Source of the DNA: Candidatus Omnitrophota bacterium
GTDB lineage: Bacteria; Omnitrophota; Gorgyraeia; Duberdicusellales; Duberdicusellaceae
Reading direction: 5' to 3'
DNA: 64,000 bases
NCBI GenBank assembly: GCA_016932855.1
Contig: JAFGCB010000016.1
Coordinates: 554-64,553 of the forward strand
Part shown: positions 20,165 to 52,800 of the stretch, in pieces
How positions within the stretch are numbered: the stretch's first letter is position 1
Layout: each line of letters opens with the position of its first letter
Notes under the pieces: model-generated
What the model was told of the DNA's origin: nothing
Database searches by the model: none
The model's input: only the letters and a program-made list of their open reading frames with translations
Translations under genes and position numbers: made by a program

Positions 20165-20375
20165 AATCCCAATTTCCAATACTACCAAACAAATCCCATC
20201 CTTCGATTACACTCAGGATGGCCCTGAGTATTCCCGAAGGGCCAACTTCCAAATCCCAAGATGTTTTGGATTCGGGATTTTGCCTGCCTGCCGGTAGGCA
20301 GGTATTTACTTGGGATTTGGTAATATTGGGTTTTGGGATTTAATTTGGGTTTTGTCATTTGAAATTTGGAATTCC
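20165..20375. repeat. Family B intergenic repeat copy B1 (AAATCCCAAA/TTTGGGATTT units; CCAATACTACCAAA ... TTTGGTAATATTGG inverted arms; central CCTGCCTGCCGGTAGGCAGG hairpin). It lies between trpF and trpC.
   Basis: Shared motifs with 36421-36606 and 52720-52800. Confidence 0.6.
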
Positions 20376-20384
20376 GACAATATA

Positions 20385-21170
20385 TCAATCTCTACAGCCT
20401 ACTTTAAATTCTTTAAGCTTCTCTTTGATATCCTCGGCTCTCATAAGAGCCTCGCCGATCAACACCGCATCCACACCGGCTCCTTTTAGAAGAAGAATTT
20501 CTTTGAGCGAGGATATGCCGCTTTCGCTTACAACAAGAGTATCCTCGGAAATAAGCGGGCTTAACTGCAAAGTCGTATCTAAGTCCACCTCAAAGGTATC
20601 TAAATTTCTATTATTTATTCCTATGATCTCAGGGGACAGCTTAAGCGCCTCTTTTAGCTCTTTCAAGCTGTGAACCTCGACAAGCACATCCATACCTAAT
20701 TCCCTGGCAAGGGTATAAAGTTTTTTAAGCTTCTCCGGCTTTAATATCTTAACTATAAGCAGAATAGCGTCCGCTCCCAAGGCCCGGGACTGGTATACCT
20801 GGGTCTCATCGATAATAAAATCCTTTCTCAAGACAGGAATATTGGACTTTTTCTTTATCTCCTTTAAAAACTTAAGTTTTCCTAAGAAAAATTCTTCCTC
20901 GGTTACTACCGACACGGCCTGAACCCCTACTTTCTTATAATCCTGCAAGATCTCAAGATGATTAAAATCCTGCCTTAGCACACCGGAAGAAGGAGAAGCT
21001 TGTTTAATCTCGGCAATAATTGAAATATTTCTGTCTTCTCTTAAAGCCTTGGAAAGCGATAAAATCTTAGGGGCCTGCTTAGTCAGAGAAATTATTTCTT
21101 TCTCGGATTTCCTGAGAATATTAATCTTTTTCTTCTTGGCCTCTATGATTAAAGAAAGTACTTTATGCAT
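20385..21170 (-). CDS. trpC: Indole-3-glycerol phosphate synthase.
   Basis: IIAEIKQASPSSG and VQAVSVVTEEEFF motifs. Confidence 0.9.
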   Translation of the reverse strand: MHKVLSLIIEAKKKKINILRKSEKEIISLTKQAPKILSLSKALREDRNISIIAEIKQASPSSGVLRQDFNHLEILQDYKKVGVQAVSVVTEEEFFLGKLKFLKEIKKKSNIPVLRKDFIIDETQVYQSRALGADAILLIVKILKPEKLKKLYTLARELGMDVLVEVHSLKELKEALKLSPEIIGINNRNLDTFEVDLDTTLQLSPLISEDTLVVSESGISSLKEILLLKGAGVDAVLIGEALMRAEDIKEKLKEFKVGCRD

Positions 21171-21226
21171 AACCTGCTTAAAGCTAGAGAGTTAAGACTG
21201 ATTTTTTATTATCCTGAACTTATAAA

Positions 21227-22249
21227 TCATTTGCGTGAATTTAGAAATTCTTTTAATTCTTGAAGTTTCTTAAGGGCTGCCCCGCTTTCAATCTGTTCTC
21301 TTGCAACTTCTACCCCCTGTTTAAAGTTTTTAGCCAACCCCGCCAAAACAAAACAGGCCGAAGCATTGGCCAACACCACATCAAGCCTTGCCGAGGGTTT
21401 AGCGCTAAGAACGCCAAGAACGGAATTTACGTTATCCTCTACCCTACCGCCTTTTATTTGAGAAAAACTCCTGCGGCTTAACCCGAAGTCGCGGGGACTT
21501 ACATAAAAAGTCCTGATCTTCTTATTTTTAACCTCGGTTATTTTGGTCTTTGCGCTAATGCTTATTTCATCATAGGTATCCTCGCCCCACACAACAAAAG
21601 CCCTCTTGGTCTTAAGATCCCTTAAAACTTTAGCTACTTTTTCCGTCAAATCTTTACTGTAAACTCCTAAAACCTGATGGGTTGCGCCTGCCGGATTAGT
21701 AAGGGGGCCTACTATGTTGAATATGGTTCTTATTCCTATCTCTTTACGCACCGCGGCTACGTTTCTCATGGCCGAATGGTATAAAGGAGCGTATAAAAAA
21801 CCTATGCCGACTTCTTTTACTGCCTCCTCAACCACTTTAGGCTCCAGACTCAAGTCAATGCCCAAGCCTTCAATTACATCAGCGCTGCCGCAGACTCCGG
21901 AAAAAGAGCGATTGCCGTGTTTAGCTACCTTTATGCCTTTTGAGGCTATGACAAAAGCCGTACAGGTCGATATATTAAAGGTTTTAACAGGCTTGCCCCC
22001 GGTACCGCAAGTATCTAAAACTATGGAGCCTTTCTCCGCTACATTTAACTTCAGAGACTTTTCTCGCATAATCTCAGCCAAGGCTCTCATCTCATCCGTA
22101 GTCTCTGTCTTAATCCGAAGACCTACGAGAAAGGCCGCTGCCTGGGCCGGGGTCGCCTTGCCTTCCATAATCTCCAGGAAAACCTGCTTTGCCTGAAGAT
22201 AAGAAAGCTTTTCTCCCTGGCATAATTTATTTATCGCTTCTCTAATCAT
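21227..22249 (-). CDS. trpD: Anthranilate phosphoribosyltransferase.
   Basis: VLDTCGTGGK...HGNRSFSGVCGSADV motifs. Confidence 0.9.
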   Translation of the reverse strand: MIREAINKLCQGEKLSYLQAKQVFLEIMEGKATPAQAAAFLVGLRIKTETTDEMRALAEIMREKSLKLNVAEKGSIVLDTCGTGGKPVKTFNISTCTAFVIASKGIKVAKHGNRSFSGVCGSADVIEGLGIDLSLEPKVVEEAVKEVGIGFLYAPLYHSAMRNVAAVRKEIGIRTIFNIVGPLTNPAGATHQVLGVYSKDLTEKVAKVLRDLKTKRAFVVWGEDTYDEISISAKTKITEVKNKKIRTFYVSPRDFGLSRRSFSQIKGGRVEDNVNSVLGVLSAKPSARLDVVLANASACFVLAGLAKNFKQGVEVAREQIESGAALKKLQELKEFLNSRK

Positions 22250-22815
22250 AGTTTTAAGAAATTCTTAAGAAGAGACTTACCGTCTCTAGTCAATATTGAT
22301 TCAGGATGAAACTGTATTCCAAAACACTTTGAATTCTTTACCTTTATCGCCATTATTTCTTTTTCTTTTGTTTCGGCACACACCTCTAATATCGAAGGCA
22401 GCTTCTTTCTGTCAATTATCAAAGAATGATACCTTGTAGCCACAAAAGGAGACTTAAGGCCCTTAAAGACATGCTTTTTATTATGATAAATAAGAGATGT
22501 CTTACCGTGCATTATCCTGGATGCCCTTACGATCTTGGCGCCCATTGCGAAACCGATGGCTTGATGCCCGAGACATACTCCCAAGAGAGGTATTTTATCA
22601 TAAAATTCCTTAATTAAGGAAACAGAAATCCCGGCACGCTCAGGCCTTCCCGGCCCGGGAGAAATTACTATCTTGCTGGGCCTAAATCTCCGAATCCCAG
22701 GTATAGTTATCTGGTCATTTCTTTTTACCGTGACCTCCGCGCCCAGCTCTGAGATATACTGGTAAAGATTATAAACAAAAGAATCGTAATTATCTATCAA
22801 CAAAACTTTCTTCAT
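22246..22815 (-). CDS. trpG: Anthranilate synthase component II (glutamine amidotransferase, TrpG/PabA type).
   Basis: MKKVLLIDNYDSFVYNL...LGVCLGHQAIG...FGIQFHPES catalytic triad context. The likely start is the ATG at 22813-22815. ATGA overlap with trpD. Confidence 0.85.
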   Translation of the reverse strand: MKKVLLIDNYDSFVYNLYQYISELGAEVTVKRNDQITIPGIRRFRPSKIVISPGPGRPERAGISVSLIKEFYDKIPLLGVCLGHQAIGFAMGAKIVRASRIMHGKTSLIYHNKKHVFKGLKSPFVATRYHSLIIDRKKLPSILEVCAETKEKEIMAIKVKNSKCFGIQFHPESILTRDGKSLLKNFLKL

Positions 22816-22933
22816 TTTTTTGTATATCCTTGGACTTTCGATCCTCGTTTTAAGACACAGCACCTGGCGCCATGCACTTAACACCTATACTCTTAAGAAC
22901 AAACATAGAGTATCAACAAATCAAATTTAAACT

Positions 22934-24196
22934 CTATTCTCTGCCCCGCCGCACCTGAGCACCTAGCTGTTCAAGTTTTGAGATGAAGTTTTCATAGCCT
23001 CTATCAAGATGATAAAGCCTGTGGATTATGGTCTTGCCGCTTGCGCAGAGGCCGGCCGCAACCAGACAAGCCGAAGCCCGAAGATCCGAAGCCATAACCT
23101 CGGCATGAGAAAATTTTCTTGAACCCTCTACTACCGCCACGGAGCCAAAACGGTTTATTTTAGCTCCCATTCTATTAAGCTCGGGGACATGCATGAATCT
23201 GTCAGGGTATACCTTCTCGGTAACCGTAGAAATCCCTTCAGCCTGCGAAAGTAAAACCATAAACTGGGCCTGCAAATCTGTAGGAAAACCGGGGAAAGCC
23301 AAAGTAGTAATATTTGCGGGATTAATCTTTCGATGCCGCTTTACGCATATACTGCCGTTCTTTATCTGGACATGCTGGCCCATATTTTTAAGGGCATCAA
23401 TAACCGCGCCCAAGAAAGAAACCGATATGTCTTCTATCACCAGCGAACCTCCGGTTGCTATAGCAAAAACAATAAAAGTCCCTGCTTCGATGCGGTCAGG
23501 GATTACTCTATGCTTAAAACCGCTCAGTTTCTTCTTGCCTCTTACAGTTATCTGGGGCGTGCCTTCGCCCTGGATATCAGCTCCCATTTTCTTTAAAACT
23601 TTGGCTAAATCTACGACCTCGGGCTCGCAAGCCGCGAAATCAATTATAGTCTCTCCGCTGGCAAGGGTCGAAGCCATCATAATATTGGCAGTGCCTAGAA
23701 CCGAGGGACCAAAAGGGCTTCCTAAAAACATCTCTTTGCCCAAAAGCCCCGAGGATGAAGCATAGCAGTATCCTCCGGAAATTCTAATATTAGCCCCTAA
23801 TTCTTCAAGCCCTTTCATATGCAGATCTACGGGCCTGATGCCGATGACGCAACCTCCCGGTAAAGAAACCTTGGCTCTCTTCCTTTTGGCAAGAAGAGGC
23901 CCTAAGACGCAGAAAGAAGCCCTCATTGTTCTTACCAGCTTGTAAGGAGCCACAAAGCTCTTATTGCTCCTTGTCTTTATGGTAAGAGAGTCTTCCTGGA
24001 AATATACTCTCTTACCTAAAACCTCTAGTATTTTGACCATAGTATGCACATCCAGAAGGCGGGGGACATTCTCAATATGACACTCTTCGTCAGTAAGCAG
24101 GCTTGCCGCCATTATAGGCAAAACCGCGTTCTTTGAACCGGAAAGCCTTACTTTCCCCTTTAATTTCTTACCGCCCCAAACCTCTAACTTATCCAT
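22934..24196 (-). CDS. murA: UDP-N-acetylglucosamine 1-carboxyvinyltransferase.
   Basis: N-terminus MDKLEVWGGKKLKGKVRLSGSKNAVLPIMAASLL..ENVP matches the MurA pattern (rather than AroA). Confidence 0.85.
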   Translation of the reverse strand: MDKLEVWGGKKLKGKVRLSGSKNAVLPIMAASLLTDEECHIENVPRLLDVHTMVKILEVLGKRVYFQEDSLTIKTRSNKSFVAPYKLVRTMRASFCVLGPLLAKRKRAKVSLPGGCVIGIRPVDLHMKGLEELGANIRISGGYCYASSSGLLGKEMFLGSPFGPSVLGTANIMMASTLASGETIIDFAACEPEVVDLAKVLKKMGADIQGEGTPQITVRGKKKLSGFKHRVIPDRIEAGTFIVFAIATGGSLVIEDISVSFLGAVIDALKNMGQHVQIKNGSICVKRHRKINPANITTLAFPGFPTDLQAQFMVLLSQAEGISTVTEKVYPDRFMHVPELNRMGAKINRFGSVAVVEGSRKFSHAEVMASDLRASACLVAAGLCASGKTIIHRLYHLDRGYENFISKLEQLGAQVRRGRE

Positions 24197-24198
24197 AA

Positions 24199-25038
24199 CT
24201 AAATAGATGCCGGTTCCCAGAGGCCAAAACCATTCTCTATCTGGTTCCTGGTTTCTTCCTCCAATACAATAACTCTATCTATCCCCGCATAATCTTTTAC
24301 AACTTTTACTAATTCAAAGCCGCAACTTTCCGCGTAGCCTACTGTATTCTGCCTTTGACCATATCCTATCTCAAGAAATAACAGACCTTTTGCTTTTAAA
24401 TAAACTCTCGCTGCCTTGATTATCTTCCTTATGGCATCCAATCCGTCTTTACCACCGTCTAAAGCAATCCTGGGCTCATAATCCATCCGGTGCTTGCGGA
24501 TATAATCAGACTCAACATAAGGAGGGTTAGAGACAATTATATCAAAAGATTTCTCTCTAAAACACGACAATAAATCGGCTTTTACAAGATAAACATTCCT
24601 GCACTTATGCTTTAAAATATTTCTCTTGGCAAGAGCCAGGGCCTTAGCGCAAATATCAACAGAGAAAAACTTAAAAAAGGGATTTTTTTCTGCCAGGGCA
24701 ACCGTAATATTTGCCGAGCCAGTGCCGATATCCAGAATAAACAGCTCTTTCCTGCCGCCTGAATATTGAAGAACAGCTTCAACCAAAATCTCCGTCTCCG
24801 GCCGGGGTATTAATACCGCCTCGTCAATCTCGAATTCTAAACCAAAAAAAACAGCTTTTTTTAAAAGATATTCCAAAGGCCTGCCTTTATCGTGTTCTCT
24901 AATAACCCGGCTTAATGACTCTTGCTCAGAGGCAGTCAGGTTCCTTTTTCCCGATATATAATCATAGAAATCAATATTAAAAAGCTTCTCAATCGCGAAT
25001 TTTAGATCCGAAGTGCTTATTTGAGGCTTAAGCTTCAT
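24199..25038 (-). CDS. prmC: Release factor glutamine N5-methyltransferase PrmC/HemK.
   Basis: IVSNPPY motif with class I MTase motif I (LDIGTGSANI). ATGA overlap with prfA. Confidence 0.85.
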   Translation of the reverse strand: MKLKPQISTSDLKFAIEKLFNIDFYDYISGKRNLTASEQESLSRVIREHDKGRPLEYLLKKAVFFGLEFEIDEAVLIPRPETEILVEAVLQYSGGRKELFILDIGTGSANITVALAEKNPFFKFFSVDICAKALALAKRNILKHKCRNVYLVKADLLSCFREKSFDIIVSNPPYVESDYIRKHRMDYEPRIALDGGKDGLDAIRKIIKAARVYLKAKGLLFLEIGYGQRQNTVGYAESCGFELVKVVKDYAGIDRVIVLEEETRNQIENGFGLWEPASI

Positions 25039-26093
25039 ACTCTCGACTTTCTCTCCTTCAAGATTAAAGGCTTTATTATCAAATCCAGGTTACCTTCCAT
25101 GGCTTCTTCCAGCCTGTATACGGTAATCGGCCCTCTATGATCAGTAACTCTTCTCTGGGGAAAATTATAAGTCCTTATCTTTTCGCTTCTATCGCCTGTT
25201 CCGATTTGCCGCCTTCTCTCGGAATCAATTCCTTGGGCCTGGGCCCGCTTCTGGTACTCAAGAATCCTGGCCTTTAGAATACGCATTGCCTTTTCTCTAT
25301 TCTTGATCTGGGAACGCTCATCCTGACAAGTAGCCACTATTCCCGAAGGTAAATGCGTAATCCTTACGGCTGAGTCAGTGACATTTACATGCTGGCCTCC
25401 CGCGCCCTTGGCCCTAAAAGTATCAATGGTCAAATCTTTAGGCTCAATCTGGACCTCGAGAGCACTTGGCTCCTTAAGCACGGCTACGGTCACCGTTGAA
25501 GTATGGATTCTTCCTCCTGATTCAGTAACCGGAATCCGCTGAACCCTGTGAACCCCGCTTTCAAACCGGAAATGAGCGTAAGCGCCCTTGCCCTTAACCG
25601 CAAAAATCACTTCTTTAAATCCTCCTATTTCCGTGGGCTGAGAATCCAAGACTTCCATATTCCAGCCCTTATTTACGACGTATTTTGAATACATCCGGAA
25701 AAGGTCAGCCGAAAAAAGCGAAGATTCCTGACCGCCGGCAGCAGGCCTTATTTCCACAATTACGGTCCTGTCGGGCTCCTGCTCTTCCTGATAAATCATC
25801 TCTTCTATATCTTCCTCGATATTGCCGACTTTTTCCTGAAGATTGCCGAGCTCCTGCTGGGCAAGCTCCAATATATCTTGACTTTCCTTCCCGTTATTAA
25901 GCATATTCTCTAAATCGCCTCTTTGCTTCAGAAGGCTCTTGTATTCTTTCGAGAGTTTTATCAATTCTTCCAAAAAGGAAAATCGCTTGGCAAGCTTCTG
26001 ATATTTATCCCTGTCAGAAATAATGTCCGGCGAAGCAAGCAACAAGGACAATTCCTCGTGTTCTTTTTCTATCTTTTCAAGATCTTCAAACAT
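25035..26093 (-). CDS. prfA: Peptide chain release factor 1.
   Basis: GGQHVN motif. PVT tripeptide at the PAT position. Adjacent prmC. Confidence 0.9.
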   Translation of the reverse strand: MFEDLEKIEKEHEELSLLLASPDIISDRDKYQKLAKRFSFLEELIKLSKEYKSLLKQRGDLENMLNNGKESQDILELAQQELGNLQEKVGNIEEDIEEMIYQEEQEPDRTVIVEIRPAAGGQESSLFSADLFRMYSKYVVNKGWNMEVLDSQPTEIGGFKEVIFAVKGKGAYAHFRFESGVHRVQRIPVTESGGRIHTSTVTVAVLKEPSALEVQIEPKDLTIDTFRAKGAGGQHVNVTDSAVRITHLPSGIVATCQDERSQIKNREKAMRILKARILEYQKRAQAQGIDSERRRQIGTGDRSEKIRTYNFPQRRVTDHRGPITVYRLEEAMEGNLDLIIKPLILKERKSRV

Positions 26094-26166
26094 AGCTAAG
26101 ACTCCAGACTAAAGACAAAAGACTTTAATCTAGATTTCTCCGGTCTTGGGTCTTGCGTCTTTAGTC

Positions 26167-26370
26167 TTATTTTGATTTCTGGTATTTCTTGATAAACTTA
26201 TCGACCCTTCCCTCGGAATCAACAAACTTCTGTTTACCGGTAAAGAAAGGGTGGCATTCCGAGCAAATCTCCACGTGTATATTGGGCTTTGTAGAACGGG
26301 TATGGATTACATTGCCGCAAGCGCAAATTATCGTGGACTCTACATATTTAGGGTGTAACTTCTTCTTCAT
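26167..26370 (-). CDS. rpmE: 50S ribosomal protein L31.
   Basis: MKKKLHPKY...C.CG......[25 protein letters not shown]. Confidence 0.85.
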
Positions 26371-26392
26371 CTTAGAACCTCCTTAAAACATC

Positions 26393-26532
26393 AAACCTAT
26401 TGTCAAAAATTTTAATAATATTTTAATAAATCAAAATTCAAAAGGAAAAAGTCAAAATTTCAATTCAAAAGTTAAAAGTTTTGGATTTTGAATTGCAATT
26501 TTGCATTTTGAATTTTTACTTTTAAGTTTTCA
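26393..26532. repeat. Family C AT-rich intergenic repeat copy C1 (CCTATTGTCAAAA ... TCAAAAGGAAAAAGTCAAAATTTCAATTCAAAAGTTAAAAG), with internal inverted aaaattcaaaa/ttttgaatttt.
   Basis: Near-identical blocks at 42411-42530. A related copy lies at 37020-37140. Confidence 0.55.
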
Positions 26533-27780
26533 TTATTGATTCATGGTCAAAAGAAACTCGGCGTTGCTTTTTGTCCGGGAAAGCCGTTCAATAAGAAGCT
26601 CTATTGCCTCTACCGAGTTTAAGTCGTTTAAGACCTTGCGCAGTATCCAAATCCTCTGAAGCTCATCGGGATGCAGTAAAAGCTCTTCCCTTCGGGTGTT
26701 GGAACGCTTAATATCCACCGAAGGATAGATTCTCCGCTGGAAGATATTTCTATCCAGGTTTATCTCCATATTTCCGGTTCCTTTAAATTCTTCGAATATC
26801 ACGTCATCCATCCGGGAGCCTGTATCCACCAGGGCTGTGGCGATAATAGTAAGTGAGCCTCCTTCTTCTATGGCTCTTGCCGCTCCGAAAAACCTCTTGG
26901 GTTTATGAAGGGCGTTGGAATCAATTCCGCCGGAAAGGATTCTTCCTGAATGGGGCTCAACAAGATTGTAGGCCCGGGCAAGCCTGGTAATACTGTCGAG
27001 AAGAATTACCACGTCTCGTTTGTGCTCAACCAGCCTTCTGGCCTTTTCAAGGACAATCTCGGCCACTTGGACATGCCTATCAGCCGGTTCATCAAAGGTA
27101 GAGCTTATCACCTCGCCTCTTACCATCCTCTTCATCTCAGTAACTTCCTCGGGCCGTTCGTCAATCAAAAGAACCATCAAAAGCACGTCGGGATTGTTAG
27201 TCACTATAGAATTGGATACTTTCTGCAAAAGCACGGTCTTTCCGCTATAGGGCGGTGCAACTATAAGGCCCCGCTGGCCCTTGCCTATGGGGACAAGTAA
27301 ATCTAATATTCTCGTAGAAACCTCTTCAGGCTTAGTCTCCAACAGAAATCTCTCCTTAGGATAAACCGGAGTCAAATTATCGAAAAGAACCCTGTTCTTA
27401 ACCTCTTCGGGGTCTTCGAAGTTAACCGCCTCGACTTTTAGAAGCGCGAAATACTTCTCGTTTTCTTTGGGAGGCCTGATCTGACCGCTTACCGTATCTC
27501 CGGTCTTAAGAGAAAATTTTCTAATCTGTGAGGGCGAAACATATATGTCGTCGGGAGAAGGAAGGTAATTGTAGTTCGGCGAACGCAAAAAACCGAACCC
27601 CTCAGACAATACCTCCAAAACACCGCTGCCAAACATAAGGCCCTCTTTCTCGGCCTGAGCCTGGAGAATTTTAAAAATCAAGTCCTGCTTCTTAAGGCCG
27701 CTTGCGCCGTTTATTGTTAAATCCTTGGCAATCTTGCTAAGCTCTGATATTTTGGTCTCTTTCAGCGTCCCGATATCCAT
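26533..27780 (-). CDS. rho: Transcription termination factor Rho.
   Basis: Rho N-terminal domain, RNA-binding and ATPase motifs ([15 protein letters not shown]). The likely start is the ATG at 27778-27780 (MDIGTLKE), preceded by GGAGG. Confidence 0.9.
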
Positions 27781-27932
27781 TGCTACCTCCTTTGGTCTGG
27801 CACTAGAGCGCTTAACCATAACGCTACCTCCGTTCGATAAGAGAACAGAAAACAGAATACAGACAACAGAAAAAGACTCTTCTTCTTTCCGGGCTCTGCA
27901 CTCTATGCTCTGCGCTCTCTAAAAGTTTGTAA

Positions 27933-28526: not shown

Positions 28527-28568
28527 CCTCGTCTCTTATTTAAGGTCAAAACGACATAGATATAAAGA

Positions 28569-28632
28569 GTGCTAGGCGTTAGGTGCTAAGTTATTAATAT
28601 TTAGTTGGCACCATGCGCCTTGCCCTAAGCAC
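28569..28632. repeat. Family D palindromic repeat copy D1 (GTGCTAGG...GGTGCTAAGTTATTAATATTTA...CCTAAGCAC), overlapping the glgA stop codon.
   Basis: A 23-nt block (AGGTGCTAAGTTATTAATATTTA) is identical to 40978-41000. Confidence 0.6.
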
Positions 28633-30001: not shown

Positions 30002-30068
30002 TTTTTTCTCCTCCATTTAAAAGTTTTAGGTGCTTAAGACCAAAACCTTTTCTTTAATCCTCAATTTT

Positions 30069-30150
30069 TCGGGTGTAGCGTATAGGATATCGGGTTTTGG
30101 GAAAATAAATACGACACCCGATACGCGATGCCCGATACCCGAAAGACAAG
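30069..30150. repeat. Family A intergenic repeat copy A3, in inverted orientation, between glgA and polA.
   Basis: cgacacccgatacgcgatgcccgatacccgaa. Part of it is the reverse complement of gcatcgcgtatcgggtgt at 15731. Confidence 0.6.
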
Positions 30151-30192
30151 AATCTTGAAACGATTGTCTAGGATCGAAACTTGGTCTTAAGC

Positions 30193-33856: not shown

Positions 33857-33939
33857 AACTTTTTTTTACATTAACATATTATTATTTCTCTGTCAATAAA
33901 AAACTCAGTAGTTTCAAGGGGTTACATAAATTTACGCCC

Positions 33940-36385: not shown

Positions 36386-36420
36386 ATCCTCACACCTTAA
36401 TTCCAACTGTCAAAACCCAA

Positions 36421-36606
36421 ATTAAATCCCAAACCCCAATACTTCCAAATCCCAAACTTTATACGAATGTACGAATTTTTTACGAATCTACGAATAATCT
36501 AAAAGACCATTCGTATATTCGCAGTGATTCGTAAATTCGTAGGTTTGTTTGGTAGTATTGAAGATTGGAATTTTGGATTTGACATTTGGAATTTGTCGTT
36601 AATATT
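36421..36606. repeat. Family B repeat copy B2. It contains a direct array of four TACGAAT units mirrored by four ATTCGTA units (36472-36550).
   Basis: ccaaatcccaaac ... gtttggtagtattg arms. tacgaatgtacgaattttttacgaatctacgaata / attcgtatattcgcagtgattcgtaaattcgtag. Confidence 0.6.
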
Positions 36607-37026: not shown

Positions 37027-37140
37027 AACAAAAAAATTAAAATTTAAAAACTAAAAACGCAAATTAAAGACTTAAAGATCTTAGCCCAAGATTTAATATT
37101 GAAAATACGTTAGTATCTACTTTTGATTTTTTAGTTTTGA
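37020..37140. repeat. AT-rich phased A/T-tract element related to family C (copy C3).
   Basis: ttttgattttttagttttgactttttactttt resembles the C1/C2 tcaaaa periodicity. Confidence 0.3.
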
Positions 37141-37144
37141 CTTT

Positions 37145-37933: not shown

Positions 37934-38024
37934 CTCCACCTCACTTCTTTAGGTAGAAACCAGACTTAAATGCCAGATTCCAAAAGCAAATATCTTCTTC
38001 TGGTTACTGGTTGCTGGCTTCTGG

Positions 38025-38990: not shown

Positions 38991-39004
38991 TGCTCATTAT
39001 CTCC

Positions 39005-40957: not shown

Positions 40958-40972
40958 TATAAATCTTCTTAT

Positions 40973-41030
40973 GTGCTAGGTGCTAAGTTATTAATATTTA
41001 TCTAGCACCTGGCACTTTGCGCCAGGTGCC
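40973..41030. repeat. Family D palindromic repeat copy D2, with an additional perfect hairpin GGCACCTGgcactttgcgcCAGGTGCC.
   Basis: GTGCTAGGTGCTAAGTTATTAATATTTATCTAGCACC. 23 nt are identical to D1. Confidence 0.6.
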
Positions 41031-41049
41031 TCTTAAAAATATTTACTCT

Positions 41050-42390: not shown

Positions 42391-42410
42391 ATATCCTCCT
42401 TATATGTCTT

Positions 42411-42530
42411 AACCTATTGTCAAAATCTTAATCTTAATATTAGTAAGTCAAAACTCAAAAGGCAAAACTCAAAATTTCAAGTTAAAATCCAAAATTTTTA
42501 AAAATCCTGATATTTTAAATGTTTTTTAAA
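42411..42530. repeat. Family C AT-rich repeat copy C2, between acsC and acsB.
   Basis: acctattgtcaaaa...tcaaaaggcaaaactcaaaatttcaagttaaaatccaaaa. Confidence 0.55.
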
Positions 42531-42565
42531 AGGCCTGAAGTCTTTAGTCTTAAGTCTATGGTTTA

Positions 42566-44743: not shown

Positions 44744-44757
44744 TAAAAACCTCCGCT

Positions 44758-46053: not shown

Positions 46054-46565
46054 TTCTTTTCTTTGCTCCTCCCAATCCTCTCCTTAAACTCTTCCAATGT
46101 CCCAAGGAACAAACAACCCGTAGGACAAGCTTGAACACAGGCCGGCTCAGCGGTCTCGATACAAAAATCACATTTAAGACTTACCTTCTTATCTTTATCC
46201 ATGATAAGGGCGCCGAAAGGACAGGACATAATACACATACCGCAACCAACACATCTATCCTTGTCGATGGTCACCATACCGGTCCGCTCATCCCTGGTGA
46301 TTGCCGCGCTCATGCATGCCAATACGCAGGCCGGCTCGTCACAGTGCCGACATTGCAGAGGGTACGAACCCTCTTTGGTGACCTGCACGAAGACTCTCTT
46401 CTTGGGCCGGGGCTCCTCCCGGATTGCCAGGAATACATTTTTTTCCTGAGAATGGGCGACGGCACAGGCTATTTCGCAGGATTTGCACCCCACGCACCTG
46501 GCGATATCACAATAAATCCTTATCTGCGCATTGGTCTTTTTATTTTCCGCTTTTATCTTGGCCAT
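46050..46565 (-). CDS. cooF: CooF-like 4Fe-4S ferredoxin electron-transfer subunit.
   Basis: Four CxxCxxCxxxC(P)-type motifs (CVGCKSCEIAC, CRHCDEPACVLAC, CVGCGMCIMSCP, ...). Confidence 0.8.
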   Translation of the reverse strand: MAKIKAENKKTNAQIRIYCDIARCVGCKSCEIACAVAHSQEKNVFLAIREEPRPKKRVFVQVTKEGSYPLQCRHCDEPACVLACMSAAITRDERTGMVTIDKDRCVGCGMCIMSCPFGALIMDKDKKVSLKCDFCIETAEPACVQACPTGCLFLGTLEEFKERIGRSKEKK

Positions 46566-46594
46566 AAGGTCCTACTTTCGTGGAAGAATCGGTC

Positions 46595-48529
46595 TTAAGC
46601 CTTTGTCGCGGCCTCAGGGGCCCGAGCATACATAAGAGGCGCCAGCTTCAAAGCCTGCCTTTTCTTATCGATGTGAGCTATCATCATCCGGGCTGCTTTA
46701 ACAGGGTCTTGCTCAAAAGCAAACTTACCTCCCACGATATTCTCAAGTTCACCGGTTAGATAATCGGTCACCTTTTTACTTCCTAAGACCGGCAGGGGCG
46801 TACCAAACACAGTATACACACCGCTTCCTACAAAGTAGGAGCCGATGGAAACCGCTTTTTCACTCATCCATTCCGGAGCAGCGCCAGCCGCCGGAAGATC
46901 ACTGATATCTTCGCCTAAGCCGCCTTCGGCGACTACAGAAGCAAGAATAAGTAGTATCCTGGAATTATCGACACAGGAACCCACATGCAATACCGGCGGA
47001 ATCCCCACTGCTTCACATATTTCACGCAAACCTTCACCTGCGTATTCAAGAGCGCTCTCAGGGGTAAGAAGCCCTTCTTTAGCGCAAGCGATAGCTGAGC
47101 AGCCGGTCTGAACAACCAAAACATCGTTCTTTAAGAGCTCCTTAACCATAGCAACATGAGCCCAGTCATGTTTTATATTAGGATTATTGCAGCCTACTAC
47201 ACCGGCTGCTCCTCTTAACCTGCCTGAAATTATAGCGTCATTTAATGGACGTAGGGTAAAGCGGTATTTCCCGCCAAGGATTCGAAAAGCATTCTCTGTG
47301 GTAAATCCAGCGACTAAACCTTTGATCTCAGGAGGGATATCCACTCGCTCTTTGACTCTGTTTTTGTAATTCTCCACGCCGAGTCTTATAATCTGCTTGG
47401 CGATTTGAAAAGCTTTCTCTTCCTTAAATTCGATGTGTTCTACGCCAGGGAATTTGCATTTCGGCGAAGTAGTGACGAGTTTCGTATGGAAGCAATTAGC
47501 CACGCTGGAAAGCGCCGGCATAATACACTGGACATCGACCATCATAAGTTCTACCGAGCCTGTTAAAATAGCTAATTCTTGCTGCAGAAAATTACCCGCC
47601 GAAGGAAAACCATGCCGCATTAACAACTCATTAGCCGTACAACACATACCCACTAAATTTATCCCCTCTGCGCCGTATTTCTTCGCCAAGTCCAACAACT
47701 CTTTGTCTTTGGCAGCATCGGCAACCACATCGGAAAGCGTAGGTTCATGGCCATGAACAACAATATTAACCTGATTTTCTTTTAATACACCTAAATTAAC
47801 TGTCGCTCTAATCGGTTCAGGCGCGCCAAATAAAATGTCTGAAAGTTCGGTAGCAATCATTGAACCGCCCCAACCGTCGCCAAGCGCGGCTCTTAGCCCA
47901 TGATTAATTACGTTTTTATAATCGTTGTCAACTCCTATATGGGTCCTGTGCATTATCTCAACGATCTCTCTGTCGATACCCCGGGGCATCATACTGAACT
48001 TCCTCCAGATAGCCTGTCGTTTCGCGGGAGCAAGGCTTGTATACTTTAATTCCCCATGCTGCTGGCCGAACTCGGAAAGACACTTGTCTCCTAATTCCTG
48101 GCCTATACTCTGGGTATCTTTGCCCGCAATATCTATTCCGTAAACTTGCGCTGTCTTTTTAAGCTTCTGGGTGCCCTTTAAATGATAATCGTGGGCCTGG
48201 CCAGAAGCCGCCAGGATCAATGCATGGGCAATATCGCGGCCGTGATCTGAATGAGCCGCGGCCCCGGAAGCGATCATCCTCACGAAATTCCTCGCCACAA
48301 TAGTATCGACCGAAGCTCCGCAGATACCGGTCTGGGGACCCTCTCCAAAAGGATCTATTCTGCAAGGACCCATATTACAAATCTTACAGCATATCCCCAG
48401 CTCCCCGAAGCCACACTGCGGCTGCATTGCATCGTATCTATCCCATACGATATCTATATTTTCATCCTGAGCCTTATTTATCATCTTTTGACTTGCCGGA
48501 TCATAGGAACGTTCTTCTGCTTTAGCCAT
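46595..48529 (-). CDS. cooS: Anaerobic carbon-monoxide dehydrogenase catalytic subunit (Ni-CODH).
   Basis: N-terminal B/D-cluster Cys motifs (CGFGELGICCKICNMGPCRI) and C-cluster region patterns. Confidence 0.9.
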   Translation of the reverse strand: MAKAEERSYDPASQKMINKAQDENIDIVWDRYDAMQPQCGFGELGICCKICNMGPCRIDPFGEGPQTGICGASVDTIVARNFVRMIASGAAAHSDHGRDIAHALILAASGQAHDYHLKGTQKLKKTAQVYGIDIAGKDTQSIGQELGDKCLSEFGQQHGELKYTSLAPAKRQAIWRKFSMMPRGIDREIVEIMHRTHIGVDNDYKNVINHGLRAALGDGWGGSMIATELSDILFGAPEPIRATVNLGVLKENQVNIVVHGHEPTLSDVVADAAKDKELLDLAKKYGAEGINLVGMCCTANELLMRHGFPSAGNFLQQELAILTGSVELMMVDVQCIMPALSSVANCFHTKLVTTSPKCKFPGVEHIEFKEEKAFQIAKQIIRLGVENYKNRVKERVDIPPEIKGLVAGFTTENAFRILGGKYRFTLRPLNDAIISGRLRGAAGVVGCNNPNIKHDWAHVAMVKELLKNDVLVVQTGCSAIACAKEGLLTPESALEYAGEGLREICEAVGIPPVLHVGSCVDNSRILLILASVVAEGGLGEDISDLPAAGAAPEWMSEKAVSIGSYFVGSGVYTVFGTPLPVLGSKKVTDYLTGELENIVGGKFAFEQDPVKAARMMIAHIDKKRQALKLAPLMYARAPEAATKA

Positions 48530-48667
48530 ATTAATCTCCTTTGCTTGATCGTTGTTTCTGCTTATAACACTAATTTACGCGAATCAAAGGACGCTAATTT
48601 TCGCGAATACTATTAGCGGTAATTTCTCATACACTCGCTGTAATTTACGTCCTAATCTGTAATCTTC

Positions 48668-49543
48668 TTAAAGACCTAGCTCATCTAAAAGCTGGGGAAC
48701 GTATTTATCCCAGCCTAAAGGCATTATATGAACGCCTTGACATAAAGGCTTTAACTGCTTTATAAGACGGGCGGCTATTTCAATAGATTTCTTTGGCCTG
48801 TCTTCTTTGGAAACCGAAGACATCTCGTCGATTAAGTCTTCGGGCACGTTTACTCCGGCAACGTTCTTATTCATAAACTTAGCCATGCCGGCTGATTTTA
48901 AAAGTACTATACCGGCAAGCACCGGAACTTTAAGGTGTTTTACCTTATCCATAAAATCGGCAAATCTATCCGCTTGGTATACAGCCTGAGTCTGAAAGAA
49001 GCGGGCGCCGGCTTGAACTTTTTTCTCCATCTTTATAATCTGAGGCTCAAGGGGCTCGGCTCCGGGAGTTACCACCGCACCTAAGAAAAAACTGGGACTT
49101 GACTCTAAGGGGTTTCCGACCATATCCTTGCCTTCGTTCAAACCCTTAGCTGCTTGAAGCAACTGCACCGAATCAAGATCATATACAGGCTTGGCCTGAG
49201 GATGATCTCCTAAAACAGGATGGTCTCCGGTAAGGCACAATACATTTTCAACCCCCAATGTATAAGCGCTTAAAAGATCCGACTGCAAAGCCAGTCTATT
49301 GCGGTCACGGGTAACCATCTGAAAAACCGGTTCCATGTCTTTTTCTTTAAGAAGAGCGCAAGCCGCCAAAGAACCGAATCTCATTACTGCCGATTGATTG
49401 TCAGTTACGTTAATCGCGGCGACTCTTCCTTTGAGATGCTCTGCTTCAGCTAAACACTCCTTAATATCTACTCCTTTAGGGGGACCGATTTCAGAAGTGA
49501 CGACAAACTCACCCTTATCTAATTTTTCCTTAAGAAGACTCAT
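48668..49543 (-). CDS. metF: Methylenetetrahydrofolate reductase (short MetF type).
   Basis: GEFVVTSEIGPPKG N-terminus and TIM-barrel MTHFR motifs. The ATG at 49541-49543 is preferred over the TTG at 49573. Confidence 0.8.
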   Translation of the reverse strand: MSLLKEKLDKGEFVVTSEIGPPKGVDIKECLAEAEHLKGRVAAINVTDNQSAVMRFGSLAACALLKEKDMEPVFQMVTRDRNRLALQSDLLSAYTLGVENVLCLTGDHPVLGDHPQAKPVYDLDSVQLLQAAKGLNEGKDMVGNPLESSPSFFLGAVVTPGAEPLEPQIIKMEKKVQAGARFFQTQAVYQADRFADFMDKVKHLKVPVLAGIVLLKSAGMAKFMNKNVAGVNVPEDLIDEMSSVSKEDRPKKSIEIAARLIKQLKPLCQGVHIMPLGWDKYVPQLLDELGL

Positions 49544-49833
49544 TCTTACACCTTTCTCTTCTAAAAAAATCAATAAATTTTCAGGATTTTTTGGATGGAT
49601 AGACTAGAATTATCCTATGCTAAATATTGAATTTTAACACTATAAGTATTATAAGTCAAGCGAAGACTGGACTTACGCAGATAAGCGAACTTAAGCTCGG
49701 TCTTCGCTTAACCCAACGCTTATTTCTACCGTATTTTCAGTTAAAATAAGTGCTGGTTCAAATTTGCAGGCATCCTTGAACCTAGGCTTTACTTTTACTT
49801 TGTTCCGCAAATCCTCCCCTCGCTGAAAAGACT

Positions 49834-49862
49834 TTGACAATTCGTTTTTATCCTATTAAAAT
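49834..49862 (+). promoter_or_regulatory. Sigma70-type promoter (TTGACA-17nt-TAAAAT) for the hydrogenase operon. The ATG is ~8 nt after the -10 box, which is consistent with a leaderless-type mRNA.
   Basis: Consensus hexamers read directly. No SD sits between the -10 box and the ATG. Confidence 0.4.
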
Positions 49863-49870
49863 AGGACACT

Positions 49871-50782
49871 ATGACCACCAAAGAAAACAACTCAAATCCC
49901 CCTACCGTTAAAGAAATTCCCGCAATTTGGCTGCCCGGTGCAGGCTGTACAGGATGTTCGGTATCGGTACTTAACGCGGTAAGCCCTAAGATTAAAAATT
50001 TGCTGCTTGATGAAATCGTACCCGGAACTAAGGTAAGTTTGCTTTTCCATGCCACTATTATGGCCGGCCAGGGAGAAATGGTAATTGAAGTATTAAAAGA
50101 TACCCAGAAAAGAAAGAAAGGTAAATACCTTTTAATCGTGGAAGGCTCTATACCTACGGCTGAAAAAGGAAAATACGGGACTCTGGGAAACCTTAAAGGT
50201 AAACACGAAACTATCTTGGGAAGCCTTAAGGAGCTGGGAAGCAATGCTCTGGCCGTAATTGCCCTGGGCGCCTGTTCCTCTTACGGAGGAATACCAGCAG
50301 CCCATCCAAACCCTACCGGATGTAAAGGCGTGAAAGAAGTCTTTAAAGAAAATAGTATAGAAACGCCGGTTATTAATGTTCCCGGATGTCCGCCTCATCC
50401 TGACTGGCTCTTAGGCACTATCTCGAGTCTACTTTTAGGAAGAATGCCGGAACTTGATGACGTTGGACGGCCCAAACTTTTTTACGGTACGCTCATACAT
50501 GAAAACTGTCCCCGCAGGGCTGATTTTGATAAAGGAAAATTTGCCAAATACCCCGGCGATGAAGGCTGTCTCTACCAGGTAGGCTGCAAAGGCCATTACA
50601 CCTACGCTGACTGTGCCTTAAGGCAGTGGAATAACGGGGTTAACTGGTGCATAAAAGCAGGCTCGCCCTGCTTAGGATGCGTTGAGCCGGAATTTCCCGA
50701 TTTAACCTCGCCCTTTTATGAAAAAATTACCACGGAGGACATAAAGTCGTGCATCACTACAAATACACAATCGACCCGATAA
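49871..50782 (+). CDS. [NiFe]-hydrogenase small subunit, with no Tat signal and no C-terminal membrane anchor (cytoplasmic, uptake-type architecture).
   Basis: WLPGAGCTGCSVSVLN, GACSSYGGIPAA, PGCPPHPDW and distal Cys motifs. The N-terminus lacks RRxFxK. Confidence 0.85.
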   Translation: MTTKENNSNPPTVKEIPAIWLPGAGCTGCSVSVLNAVSPKIKNLLLDEIVPGTKVSLLFHATIMAGQGEMVIEVLKDTQKRKKGKYLLIVEGSIPTAEKGKYGTLGNLKGKHETILGSLKELGSNALAVIALGACSSYGGIPAAHPNPTGCKGVKEVFKENSIETPVINVPGCPPHPDWLLGTISSLLLGRMPELDDVGRPKLFYGTLIHENCPRRADFDKGKFAKYPGDEGCLYQVGCKGHYTYADCALRQWNNGVNWCIKAGSPCLGCVEPEFPDLTSPFYEKITTEDIKSCITTNTQSTR

Positions 50783-52236
50783 CCCGGATAGAAGGCCACT
50801 TAGGAATCGAAGTAACCGTAGATAAAAATGTTATAAAGGAAGCTAAAAGCTCGGGAACTTTATTCCGGGGCTTTGAATTGATCCTAAAAAAAAGAGACCC
50901 CAGAGACGCAAACCGTTTAAGTCAAAGGGTCTGCGGGGTCTGCCCGGCGGTCCATGCCAAAGCCTCGGCCCTTTGTCTTGACGACGCTTTTGGCCTAAGC
51001 GGAAAAATAACTCAAAACGCAAAAATCATCCGCAACCTCATCCTCGGCTCAAACTTTCTGCAATCCCATATCCTGCATTTCTACCACTTAGCTGCCCTTG
51101 ACTACGTAGACGCAAAAAAAGCCGTGGGAGATATCGCTCCTTTTACTCCCCGCTACGAAGGAGATTACCGCCTGGATAATAAGATAAACCAACAAGCAAC
51201 AGCCCACTATATGCAAGCCTTGGACATACGGCGCAAAAGCCATGAGATGCTGGCAATTTTTGGAGGAAAGATGCCTCACAATGTAGGTATTATTCCCGGC
51301 GGAGTCACTGAAAAACCGACTGAAGATAAAATTACTAATTTCTTATGGCGCTTAAATGAAATCCGTGAGTTCATTGACAATTGCTATATACCCGATGTAA
51401 TCGCTGTTGCCAAAACCTACGGCGATTACCTAAAAATCGGCAAAGGCTGCGGAAACCTTCTTGATTACGGGGGATTTGAAATTAACGCAAATACATTTTT
51501 TAAACCAGGGGTGGTATCTGCGGGCTTGGAACTCTCAGAGTTGAATGCGGAGAAAATAACCGAAGACGTAAAATATTCCTGGTTCTCCGACCAGACAACC
51601 GGACTTCATCCTTCCCGATCAGAAACTGTACCCCAGACCGAGAAAAAAGATGCTTACTCATTCATTAAATCTCCCCGCTATGACGGCAAAGTAGTTGAAA
51701 CAGGACCTCTTGCCCGCATGGTAATTGGATACCTGCAGGATAAACCTCAAATTAAAAACCAAATTGACAGTCTTCTTTCTGAGCTTGATATCGCGGCTCA
51801 AGACTTATTTTCTGTAATGGGCCGCCATGCAGCCCGGGCAATAGAAGCTAAATTAGTTGCTGATACCATGGCCGAATGGATAGTTAAGTTAAATCCCGAC
51901 GAAAAAGTTTTTAGCGGATACCAGCTGCCGGAAACAGCCCAGGGAACAGGTCTTACAGCAGCCCCCCGGGGAAGCTTAGGCCACTGGATATCGATAAAAG
52001 ATTCTAAAATAGAAAGATACCAGATAATAAGCCCTACTTCCTGGAACGCCTCGCCCAAAGACGATAAAGGAAATCCCGGCCCTATTGAGCAGGCCCTTAT
52101 CGGGACAGAGATTAGAGATAAAGAAAATCCTTTCGAGGTAGTAAGGATAATTCGCACTTTTGACCCTTGCCTTGCCTGTTCCATGCAGTTGATTACTCCC
52201 AAGGGTAAAAAAATCGGAGAGTTCGAAGTTGTATAA
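50749..52236 (+). CDS. [NiFe]-hydrogenase large subunit.
   Basis: RIEGH, the RVCGVCPAVH L1 motif and C-terminal DPCLAC followed by a 17-aa extension. GTG start with GGAGGA upstream. Confidence 0.9.
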   Translation: MHHYKYTIDPITRIEGHLGIEVTVDKNVIKEAKSSGTLFRGFELILKKRDPRDANRLSQRVCGVCPAVHAKASALCLDDAFGLSGKITQNAKIIRNLILGSNFLQSHILHFYHLAALDYVDAKKAVGDIAPFTPRYEGDYRLDNKINQQATAHYMQALDIRRKSHEMLAIFGGKMPHNVGIIPGGVTEKPTEDKITNFLWRLNEIREFIDNCYIPDVIAVAKTYGDYLKIGKGCGNLLDYGGFEINANTFFKPGVVSAGLELSELNAEKITEDVKYSWFSDQTTGLHPSRSETVPQTEKKDAYSFIKSPRYDGKVVETGPLARMVIGYLQDKPQIKNQIDSLLSELDIAAQDLFSVMGRHAARAIEAKLVADTMAEWIVKLNPDEKVFSGYQLPETAQGTGLTAAPRGSLGHWISIKDSKIERYQIISPTSWNASPKDDKGNPGPIEQALIGTEIRDKENPFEVVRIIRTFDPCLACSMQLITPKGKKIGEFEVV

Positions 52237-52687
52237 AAAAGTTGTAATCTTAGGTCTGGGCAATATCCTCTTAAAAGATGAAGGGATCGGCGTCCATATT
52301 TCCGAGGAACTTACGAAATTGCGTCTTGGCGACAATATCGAGATTATTGACGGCGGAACCGCAAGCCTGGACGCGCTTATCCAAACAGCAAATTTCGACA
52401 AACTAGTTATTGTTGATGCTCTAAGGGCCGGTAAAAAACCGGGGACTATATATCGTTTCAACAGCCACCAGCTGCATGCGCACCTTGATTCAAGGAAACT
52501 GTCCTTGCATCAATTTAGCCTATTGGAAGCTTTATCAATAACTGAAAAAACAGGAAATTTACCCAAAGAAGTTATCTTTATAGGAGTTGAGCCTGAAAAA
52601 ATAGACTGGGGCCTGGAAGTAAGTAAGTCTGTAAAGGAAAAAATACCGGAAATTATAAAGTTAGTGACCCAGGAACTACCCAATTAG
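52229..52687 (+). CDS. Hydrogenase maturation endopeptidase (HyaD/HybD family).
   Basis: VVILGLGNILLKDEGIGVH...IIDGGT...LVIVDA pattern. TTG start overlapping the large-subunit stop. Confidence 0.75.
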   Translation: MYKKVVILGLGNILLKDEGIGVHISEELTKLRLGDNIEIIDGGTASLDALIQTANFDKLVIVDALRAGKKPGTIYRFNSHQLHAHLDSRKLSLHQFSLLEALSITEKTGNLPKEVIFIGVEPEKIDWGLEVSKSVKEKIPEIIKLVTQELPN

Positions 52688-52719
52688 TTTTTTTAGAAAC
52701 TAATTGAATGACAAATTAC

Positions 52720-52800
52720 AAATCCCAAATCCCAATAGATTTTGGATTTGGGATTTTGGATTTACTTGGGATTTGGTAGTATTGGAACTTGGGATTTGAT
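52720..52800. repeat. Family B repeat copy B3 (caaatcccaaatcccaat...ttggatttgggattttggattt palindrome plus the TACTTGGGATTTGGTAGTATTGG motif).
   Basis: Shares TACTTGGGATTTGGTA(A/G)TATTGG with B1 (20306-20330). Confidence 0.6.

Follow-up and report, generated by a model that had tools for sequence, protein, structure and literature searches.

Nested palindromic repeats of 7-nt words between operon genes in a Candidatus Omnitrophota genome

What writes long, mirrored arrays of short words into the spacers between the genes of an operon, and do such arrays serve the genes beside them? The question is raised by 64,000 nt of a Candidatus Omnitrophota metagenome-assembled genome (MAG; assembly GCA_016932855.1, contig JAFGCB010000016.1, positions 554–64,553 of the forward strand), hereafter the window, in which three intergenic gaps hold related arrays that we call Family B. 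An earlier note on this DNA had read the three sites as one repeat family with embedded hairpins and had called the word array in one of them typical of iterated regulator-binding sites or of a long RNA hairpin. We put at about 0.6 the probability that Family B is instead a modular, dispersed, non-coding palindromic repeat between operon genes, resembling REPINs and transposable elements of the miniature inverted-repeat kind (MITEs), rather than a set of regulator sites. On the best-supported classification, Candidatus Omnitrophota has a lineage-specific class of nested, modular palindromic repeats, and Family B is one family among them.

The motif TTGGGATTT has 11 exact matches in the window against 1.58 expected, a number reached by none of 100 shuffles, and all 11 lie inside the gaps 20121–20384, 36407–36606 and 52688–52862. 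The polarity-reversing core TTTGGTARTATTGG (reverse complement CCAATAYTACCAAA) occurs exactly at 20176–20189(−), 20316–20329(+) and 52772–52785(+), and with one mismatch at 36436–36449(−) and 36548–36561(+). The arms of the elements in these gaps are 85–96% alike over 26–57 nt, which bears out the grouping of the three sites into one family. The earlier note had named lack of genome-wide enrichment, or random A/T-rich drift, as what would speak against it; the motifs are enriched in just the gaps that it pointed to, are common to many other Omnitrophota contigs and are no compositional artefact. Pfam confirmed the flanking genes (trpC/trpF, yjbQ/hps-rraA and hycI/DUF5981), and the three sites are junctions of co-directional genes. 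The motifs stand where they had first been placed; the extents of the elements were corrected to 20163–20375 (B1), 36399–36598 (B2) and 52720–52802 (B3).

B1 is a composite palindrome in the spacer between trpC (IGPS) and trpF (PRAI), both on the minus strand, and its RNA folds on the sense strand at −90.1 kcal/mol (z −7.6; the RNA z-scores of B1, B2 and B3 are against dinucleotide shuffles). It has a C/A arm without any G and a G/T arm, with three or four smaller hairpins between them. The left outer arm (20163–20198, plus strand; AAAATCCCAATTTCCAATACTACCAAACAAATCCCA) is 96% complementary to the B3 arm over 26 nt, and the G/T-rich right outer arm (20303–20375, plus strand), which holds the 20-mer core TTGGGATTTGGTAATATTGG, is 89% complementary to the left arm of B2 over 57 nt. 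Between them, fold and alignment place two stacked G+C-rich hairpins as nested cargo (CCATCCTTCGA...CCCGAAGGG; 20196–20241), which the alignment shows to be missing from the orthologous element of L069 (L-numbers denote external loci, from other genomes and metagenomes, that were compared with the window). Then follow a small inner hairpin of Family B words (CCAAATCCCAAGATGTTTTGGATTCGGGATTTT; 20249–20281), seen in the fold and 85% identical to B3 at 52719–52758, and the 20-nt G+C mini-hairpin module CCTGCCTGCCGGTAGGCAGG at 20283–20302, which is the CCTGCC...GGCAGG hairpin that had already been recognized. This module has the equivalent position in Family B elements of the window, L012, L054 and L069, which suggests that the composite units travel together. 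The first cargo hairpin (20196–20221; CCATCCTTCGA...) has an 85% complementary relative at 61226–61251, in a gap (61141–61343) that holds further G+C hairpins. One same-strain contig, L001, begins within B1, as expected from an assembly break of the kind that repeats typically cause.

B2 occupies the space between the stop codon of yjbQ (UPF0047) and the start codon of a gene for an OMPdecase(HPS)-RraA fusion, just 3′ of CdhD/pterin-binding acetyl-CoA-pathway genes. It forms a near-continuous stem of ~73 bp (RNA −74.5 kcal/mol, z −10.9; DNA −47.2 kcal/mol, z −10.65). Its left outer arm (36399–36457, plus strand) consists of C/A-rich Family B words and matches the B1 right-arm type in reverse complement; its G/T-rich right outer arm (GTTTGGTAGTATTGAAGATTGG...; 36542–36598, plus strand) matches the B1 left arm, in inverted orientation, at 85% over 39 nt. 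The centre is a nested TACGAAT/ATTCGTA mirror array, previously described as four words facing four. Four direct TACGAAT words are indeed present (36462–36495, plus strand, spaced by 8, 11 and 8 nt), but the mirror side (36509–36541, minus strand) has three perfect words, with ATTCGTA at 36509, 36527 and 36535, and one variant, ATTCGCA. In the fold the words are paired and the spacers between them unpaired. The best alignment of B1 with B2 is in minus orientation (score 48), so that the two are inverted relative to each other and the element sits both ways round with respect to transcription.

B3 is a 5′-truncated, or half, element on the plus strand between the gene for HycI, a hydrogenase maturation protease, and the MetF-C-terminal DUF5981 gene ('metV'), upstream of which it stands in sense orientation. 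It comprises a short hairpin, AAATCCCAAATCCCAAT-AGA-TTTTGGATTTGGGATTT (52720–52757, plus strand), and an unpaired G/T half-arm with the 20-mer core TTGGGATTTGGTAGTATTGG (52758–52802, plus strand), folds on the sense strand at −46.4 kcal/mol (z −3.0) and is adjoined in the fold by the G+C-rich hairpin CTGCCTGCTCGCCTCTTGGCGAAACCGAGGGCCGACAAGTAGGG (52805–52848, plus strand). Structure prediction supports long hairpins at the mirror-symmetric sites. The near-identical strain contig P0241 at the B3 site begins within a gene and is uninformative on strain-level variation.

Put together, a full element runs from a C/A-rich arm, (AAATCCC)n...CCAATACTACCAAAT, through a variable centre to a complementary G/T-rich arm, ATTTGGTAGTATTGG...(GGGATTT)n; the centre can hold other small hairpin modules or another word array, e.g., TACGAAT. 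The ends are AAAATCCC...GGGATTTT, sizes range from 70 to 310 nt, and the 64 kb hold three copies. The arrays have 2–5 imperfect units, are mirrored and are broken by the non-repetitive core GGTAGTATTGG. Taken alone the arms hardly fold: the C/A arm has no G and 0 kcal/mol, and the G/T arm reaches −3.6 kcal/mol via G.U pairs only.

External copies were collected by exact match to the 20-mer TTGGGATTTGGTARTATTGG, an ascertainment that inflates apparent conservation and weakens the covariation test. The 20-mer was found at 15 loci of GTDB species representatives (8 in Omnitrophota MAGs), in 50 metagenome contigs and in two viral contigs. Of the 70 matches, 43 (38 distinct) stand among additional GGATTT/AAATCC words, some 13 fall within genes, and the remaining ones are intergenic and have fewer words. 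The core thus has at least 38 separate non-coding settings outside the window, most of them in Omnitrophota. Among the external loci are 22 full two-armed copies, with the consensus CCAATACTACCAAATAAATCCCAATTTCCAAATCCCAAA - loop or cargo - TTTTGGATTTGGGATTTTGGATTTATTTGGGATTTGGTAGTATTGGGATTTGGGATTT. Fourteen external contexts are co-directional (20-mer antisense in 10, sense in 4), five convergent and one divergent, and in copies with the 20-mer arm closest to the upstream stop codon the distance to that stop is 13–37 nt. The copies of L052, L027 and L021 have ~215 nt in common at roughly 85–90% identity, end sharply in unrelated flanks on both sides, and differ in their word arrays by 11–14-nt indels.

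The matches in coding sequence (L007, L011/L035/L045, L014, L018, L042, L046/L068, L049, L063, L067) are a subject of their own. Read by eye, several of them spell the Rossmann-type ILGFG(S/N)IG (TTG GGA TTT GGT AGT ATT GG), and one match lies in a MurD-like gene. Both viral-contig matches are coding coincidences, too, and were rejected as elements; chance matches of this kind can mislead a census based on motifs. In several external copies CAT comes next, and the C/A strand then reads ATG AAA AAT CCC AAA ... (MKNPKSQYYQIP...); the hypothesis that the element is coding was discarded, as the reading frames are short, lack a ribosome-binding site (RBS) and shift between B1 and B2, and most of the CAT cases are one composite element. 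Family B elements were also seen in MAGs assigned to other phyla, namely L002 (Woesearchaeota, on a 1.5-kb contig), L008 (Stahlbacteria) and L015 (Edwardsbacteria); L002 and L008 come from one groundwater sample and have a GAGCC(A/T)GAGGCTCATCAGCCTCCGGCTGA hairpin in common. In L070, the gaps 6070–6319, 7106–7315, 7955–8225 and 9432–9733 carry a different G+C mini-hairpin module, CCCCGTAAAGCTTCGC(A/T)ACGGGG, in at least four spacers, and modules of similar kind, ACCCCGTTACTGAC...GTCAGTAACGGGG, occur in L016, L030, L051 and L073. It seems that every genome has a small G+C hairpin module particular to it.

Comparison of orthologous junctions shows sites without any element. In L071/72, L073/74, L075 and L076 the trpC and trpF genes overlap by 8–17 nt, and L077 has 18 nt between them. 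The window has a spacer of 264 nt at this junction, L069 one of 161 nt and L070 one of 210 nt; in a neighbour-joining tree of TrpC+F+B+A the spacer-bearing genomes form a single clade, ((window, L069), L070). The L069 element has a B1-like architecture of outer arms, G+C module and small hairpin (z −6.9), written in AAATTCG words, and the L070 insert is unrelated to B1. A 17-nt segment of the trpC/trpF overlap (GGCTGTAAAGATTAA; TTGGCTGTAAAGATTAA), present in L071 at 7046–7062, flanks the 210-nt insert of L070 on both sides (7088–7105 and 7316–7333). It may represent a target duplication of great length, or a local duplication of the junction with which the spacer began, or may just be what keeping both overlapping genes intact requires. 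We considered whether pairs had flipped from G-C to C-G in compensation between L069 and the window and rejected this, the change from AAATCCC to AAATTCG being mainly C-to-U and paired via G.U.

At the B2 site, the yjbQ stop codon TAG directly abuts the next ATG in L078 and L080, L079 has 50 nt (4951–5000) with four direct GTT[CG]ACA heptamers, and the window has the 200-nt B2 together with a new Shine-Dalgarno sequence. Direct-only heptamer arrays, of ACAGAGN type and without palindromes, were also seen in L080 at 4609–4681 and 2831–2874; the arrays of L079 and L080 may be precursors of the mirrored form. At the B3 site, L081 (MetV identity 78%) has a 130-nt spacer with unrelated CGAGCAT words. 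At the trpB-trpA junction the words likewise differ: GGGTATC (window), GTCACAN (L069) and CTAAATN (L073). L069 also has a Family B element at its aroA-trpG junction, which in the window is just 49 nt long. Local alignment scores follow the same lines. B1 scores 48 with B2 and 40 with B3, and B3 scores 47 with the non-orthologous aroA-trpG element of L069; against its orthologous sites B1 scores 32 (L069) and 14 (L070, noise level, with shuffles at ~12, s.d. ~2). Similarity between copies at unrelated sites is therefore at least as high as that between the contents of orthologous sites.

Family B is one family among many similar palindromes of the window, where almost every co-directional gap has its own palindrome of tandem, mirrored words of ~7 nt and the long run of minus-strand genes has one at nearly all its junctions. 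Pooled over 15 gaps, autocorrelation is 0.405 at lag 7, 0.364 at lag 14 and 0.342 at lag 21, against ~0.25 in coding DNA, and 12 of the 15 gaps have their highest value at lag 7 or 14 (7 for B1 and B3; 8, then 7, for B2). The words differ by junction and include GGGATTT, GGGTATC, AAGACNN, ACAGANN, TCAAAAN, GTGCTAG and TACGAAT. A GGGTATC(G)/CGATACCC family occupies 15664–15799 (argS-rsfS gap), 18214–18328 (trpB-trpA gap) and 30017–30192 (upstream of polA); its copies are alike over 24–37 nt at 89–92%, and the one at 18214 folds at −57.6 kcal/mol. AAGACNN/GTCTT words form the palindrome at 26094–26190, ACAGANN/CTCTG words that at 27820–27932, TCAAAAN/TTTTGA words those at 26420–26532, 37027–37144 and 42430–42565 (also delimited as 42430–42500), and GTGCTAG words those at 28527–28624 and 40958–41049. 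The gap at 48530–48667 belongs to a further set of mirrored-word palindromes, in which TAATTTACGCGAAT-like words also occur. TACGAAT itself has 10 matches in the window against 6.6 expected, 7 of them within one 80-nt stretch; its array is one more word array, local only and nested in B2. A 439-nt 'gap' of the window contains a small, previously unlisted open reading frame (ORF) at 26200–26382 (minus strand) that reads by eye as ribosomal protein L31, which fits the rho-rpmE-prfA synteny of L070, L073 and L076; the true spacers around it are 26094–26200 and 26380–26532.

We therefore favor a reading in which the elements are DNA-level passengers that would be copied among intergenic spacers by transposition or gene conversion and tolerated between genes only, their arrays lengthening and shortening by slippage of the ~7-nt words and one element nesting within another. 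The presence of the family in both orientations (B1 vs B2) and its REP-like placement point the same way. Since the elements are inside operons, they would be co-transcribed and must then form long stem-loops in the polycistronic mRNA, as a by-product; an effect on mRNA processing, stability or polarity would be a secondary consequence. Several observations weigh against this reading. The borders of the 22 full copies show no consistent direct repeat of the kind left by target-site duplication, no transposase or RAYT was found among the 30 ORFs scanned in the window, and the count of three copies covers the 64-kb window. Arms as simple as these 7-nt words might also have become alike by convergence, or a protein that binds them specifically might keep them alike, and the copies in Woesearchaeota, Stahlbacteria and Edwardsbacteria MAGs may reflect mis-binned Omnitrophota contigs or horizontal spread. 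Finally, palindromy at trpC-trpF lasts across deep divergence (z about −7 or stronger in both the window and L069), which calls either for continuing replacement or homogenization or for selection on the hairpin, and such selection would imply a function.

A function of that kind is the substance of the alternative in which the palindromes are selected intercistronic RNA elements, serving as stabilizers against exonucleases, like the Escherichia coli REP sequence in malE-malF, as RNase III processing sites by which cistrons are uncoupled, or as modulators of Rho polarity. We regard it as doubtful but worth keeping in view, and it is compatible with a mobile origin through exaptation. In its Rho variant, the 5′ arm would be a G-free, C-rich, unstructured rut-like tract that is later masked by the 3′ arm; the G-free C/A arm with its 0 kcal/mol of self-structure suits this, Rho is encoded in syntenic loci, and a 428-aa ORF of the window (26533–27819, beside rpmE and prfA) is by synteny a putative rho. 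The folds at all three gaps are very strong, the spacers are filled from about 9–32 nt past the stop to 13–60 nt before the next start with the Shine-Dalgarno sequence left free, and the trpC-trpF spacer stays palindromic in the window and L069 despite the change of words from AAATCCC to AAATTCG (G.U-paired); a selected RNA role would help to account for spacers that remain palindromic while their words turn over. Raw folds also favor the sense over the antisense strand in 19 of 27 informative gaps (Wilcoxon p = 0.0035), with 229 vs 134 G.U pairs. However, once composition is controlled for by shuffling, the sense advantage vanishes (mean −1.07 kcal/mol, 16 vs 12, Wilcoxon p = 0.34), so that the raw difference stems from G+T content, and G.U pairs were dropped as proof of an RNA-level hairpin. 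A/G variants of the core give sense-strand G.U pairs in two cases but C.A mismatches in two, and arms are no more complementary to their own partners (24.4) than to arms of other elements (24.6; permutation p = 0.60), in a comparison of low power with right arms fixed by the search pattern. Moreover, the same operons in close relatives have overlapping or abutting genes, which argues that the hairpins are dispensable; B1 and B2 are oppositely oriented; and no terminator-like site (G+C-rich stem plus U tract) lies in the coding direction at B1, B2 or B3. A search of the whole window with Rfam 15 gave nothing at gathering thresholds, and permissive scans gave generic miRNA-hairpin matches far below threshold.

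The proposal that the words are iterated sites for a transcription factor, e.g., the Rrf2 protein (58355–58771) on TACGAAT, or, in a variant, for a CsrA-like protein acting on the GGA-rich G/U arm that closely precedes the RBS of the following gene, appears very improbable to us. Direct and inverted word arrays do look iteron-like, the core is kept as an exact 20-mer in many genomes, half copies place a sense G/T arm 15–60 nt upstream of an RBS and ATG (L005, L006, L012, L023, L050, L060 and B3), and heptamers before start codons of Beggiatoaceae were proposed as sites of post-transcriptional regulators (PMC4679880). Yet TACGAAT is not enriched outside B2, the words change from one junction to the next within the same pathways, orthologous junctions included, and relatives lack the sites altogether, close ones being devoid of any spacer where B1 and B2 stand. 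The elements lie within operons, 8–35 nt past stop codons and outside promoter regions, between genes with no obvious common regulon (trp, hps-rraA, metV) and in divergent position in only one of ~20 classifiable contexts, and the 20-mer is antisense to the genes in about two thirds of classifiable copies. That orientation, which holds for most co-directional contexts, also speaks against a promoter module, in which the G/T arm, with an extended −10-like TGGTAGTAT or a Bacteroidota-like TAnnTTTG, would drive the downstream gene in the manner of Neisseria Correia elements. One arm is always directed at the gene that follows, 45–80 nt from its ATG, and half copies stand in sense orientation just before genes, but a sigma-70-type scan found no promoter in the coding direction at B2 and B3 and only a weak one outside the core of B1, the spacing from TTGGGA to TAGTAT is 5 nt, L058 has a canonical TTGACA-17-TATAAT downstream of its element and divergent contexts are rare; we find this idea very improbable too. 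Purely local growth, spacer by spacer, of heptanucleotide simple sequence repeats (SSRs) and their inverted copies by polymerase slippage and template switching, on the model of the long heptanucleotide SSRs of Xanthomonas and Nostoc, without dispersal and perhaps with G-quadruplexes in some G-rich arms, is an improbable account of the whole, if a less strained one. It draws on the 7-nt periodicity of nearly all gaps, the 11–14-nt word-number indels between related copies, the direct-only heptamer arrays of relatives (L079, GTT[CG]ACA ×4; L080, ACAGAGN) and the 17-nt duplication around the L070 insert, which suggests birth of a spacer by local duplication; heptamers are also the most over-represented class of long SSRs in bacteria, and slippage has been proposed for them (PMC4692102, PMC4679880). 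It leaves unexplained the 26–57-nt stretches of 85–96% identity among B1, B2 and B3, which include the non-repetitive GGTAGTATTGG, the same core and G+C module in dozens of unrelated contexts of other genomes, and the sharp-bordered units of ~215 nt. Slippage probably accounts for the growth of arrays in elements already in place, and local expansion may lie behind many of the other word families.

Other features were also seen in the window. The DUF5981 (MetF C-terminal, 'MetV'-like) gene next to B3 (52863–53528, plus strand) and a paralogue at 54178–54894 (minus strand) give rise to a 153-nt inverted repeat of 72% identity, a full MTHFR gene lies at 48668–49573, and at 4453–5292, inside a 1312-aa ORF with TPR and secretin domains (2269–6207), there are direct repeats with a period of 222 nt and 60–78% identity, probably 74-aa protein repeats.

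To our knowledge, nothing has been reported on the non-coding genome of the uncultivated Omnitrophota, and our literature search found no paper describing such repeats in them. It is conceivable, if rather unlikely, that in some of their lineages a process not described so far inserts nested 7-nt-word palindromes at nearly all operon junctions, either as a new mobile machinery that targets hairpins and measures heptamers or as an RNA-level 'operon punctuation'. Such a process would split genes that once overlapped (trpC/trpF) or abutted (yjbQ/hps) and would keep palindromy while the sequence turns over; the machinery might be common to the unexplained heptamer repeats of cyanobacteria, and the punctuation would consist of long stem-loops whose G-free, rut-like 5′ arms set cistron-specific processing, decay or Rho polarity. 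The chief interest of the dispersed palindromes, however they arose, is the lineage-wide saturation of operon junctions together with clean empty-site comparisons: hairpin-saturated junctions here and compact, overlapping ancestral ones in sister lineages constitute a natural before-and-after experiment on the invasion of operons by palindromes. They also connect dispersed palindromes of REP/MITE type with the excess of heptanucleotide repeats in bacteria, neither of which is well understood. In practice, repeats of this kind break assemblies and can yield spurious small ORFs and false calls of 'regulatory motifs' in MAG annotation.

How does Family B compare with known systems? MITEs such as the Correia elements of Neisseria, ERIC/IRU and the pneumococcal BOX and RUP are non-autonomous intergenic elements of 100–250 nt with terminal inverted repeats that often form co-transcribed hairpins; BOX is modular, and bacterial MITEs show presence/absence polymorphism between relatives. 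Family B resembles them in being non-coding and multi-copy, in its terminal inverted repeats, in its size within 50–500 bp, and in its presence/absence polymorphism, unrelated flanks and sharp borders. No consistent direct repeat was seen around its 22 full copies. It differs in that its arms are heptamer arrays of variable unit number, and in having no sequence similarity to the MITE families named. REP sequences, REPINs and BIMEs (E. coli, Pseudomonas) are short non-coding multi-copy intergenic repeats, mosaic and clustered, whose inverted doublets form hairpins in single-stranded DNA or mRNA and which are found chiefly downstream of genes, where the ORFs on either side are unidirectional or convergent (PMC3733652, PMC3116915). 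Family B matches this placement (14 co-directional, 5 convergent, 1 divergent) and is likewise mosaic, its inverted units and spacer form a long hairpin (z −7.6 and −10.9), and its core contains GTAG (GGTAGTATTGG). A REP unit, however, is a G+C-rich imperfect palindrome of 20–40 bp with an unpaired GTAG or CGTC tag, a definition that does not cover Family B, whose arms are A+T-rich tandem 7-nt words that do not fold on themselves; REPINs are mobilized by RAYTs, and the 30 window ORFs scanned contain none. Heptanucleotide long SSRs include GGGAATC in Xanthomonas, GGGGA(T/C)T in Nostoc, TAACTGA in Beggiatoaceae and the cyanobacterial STRR sequences; their function is unknown, their unit number varies among relatives, some form inverted pairs capable of folding into stem-loops and some lie in operons, e.g., Nostoc pecE-pecF (PMC4692102, PMC4679880). 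With these Family B has in common tandem 7-nt units in intergenic DNA. Theirs are mostly long, direct, single-word arrays with one or few words per genome, whereas those of Family B are short, almost always mirrored, nested and joined to a conserved core and G+C hairpin modules, in a window with many different words. The nested architecture has a counterpart in the small dispersed repeats of Nostoc, where, according to Elhai et al. 2008 (Genome Research), modules are reportedly found inserted in hairpin-forming sequences and in one another, the mobilizing mechanism being unknown. Although phylum and sequences are different there, Family B resembles them in consisting of very small nested modules in hairpin contexts.

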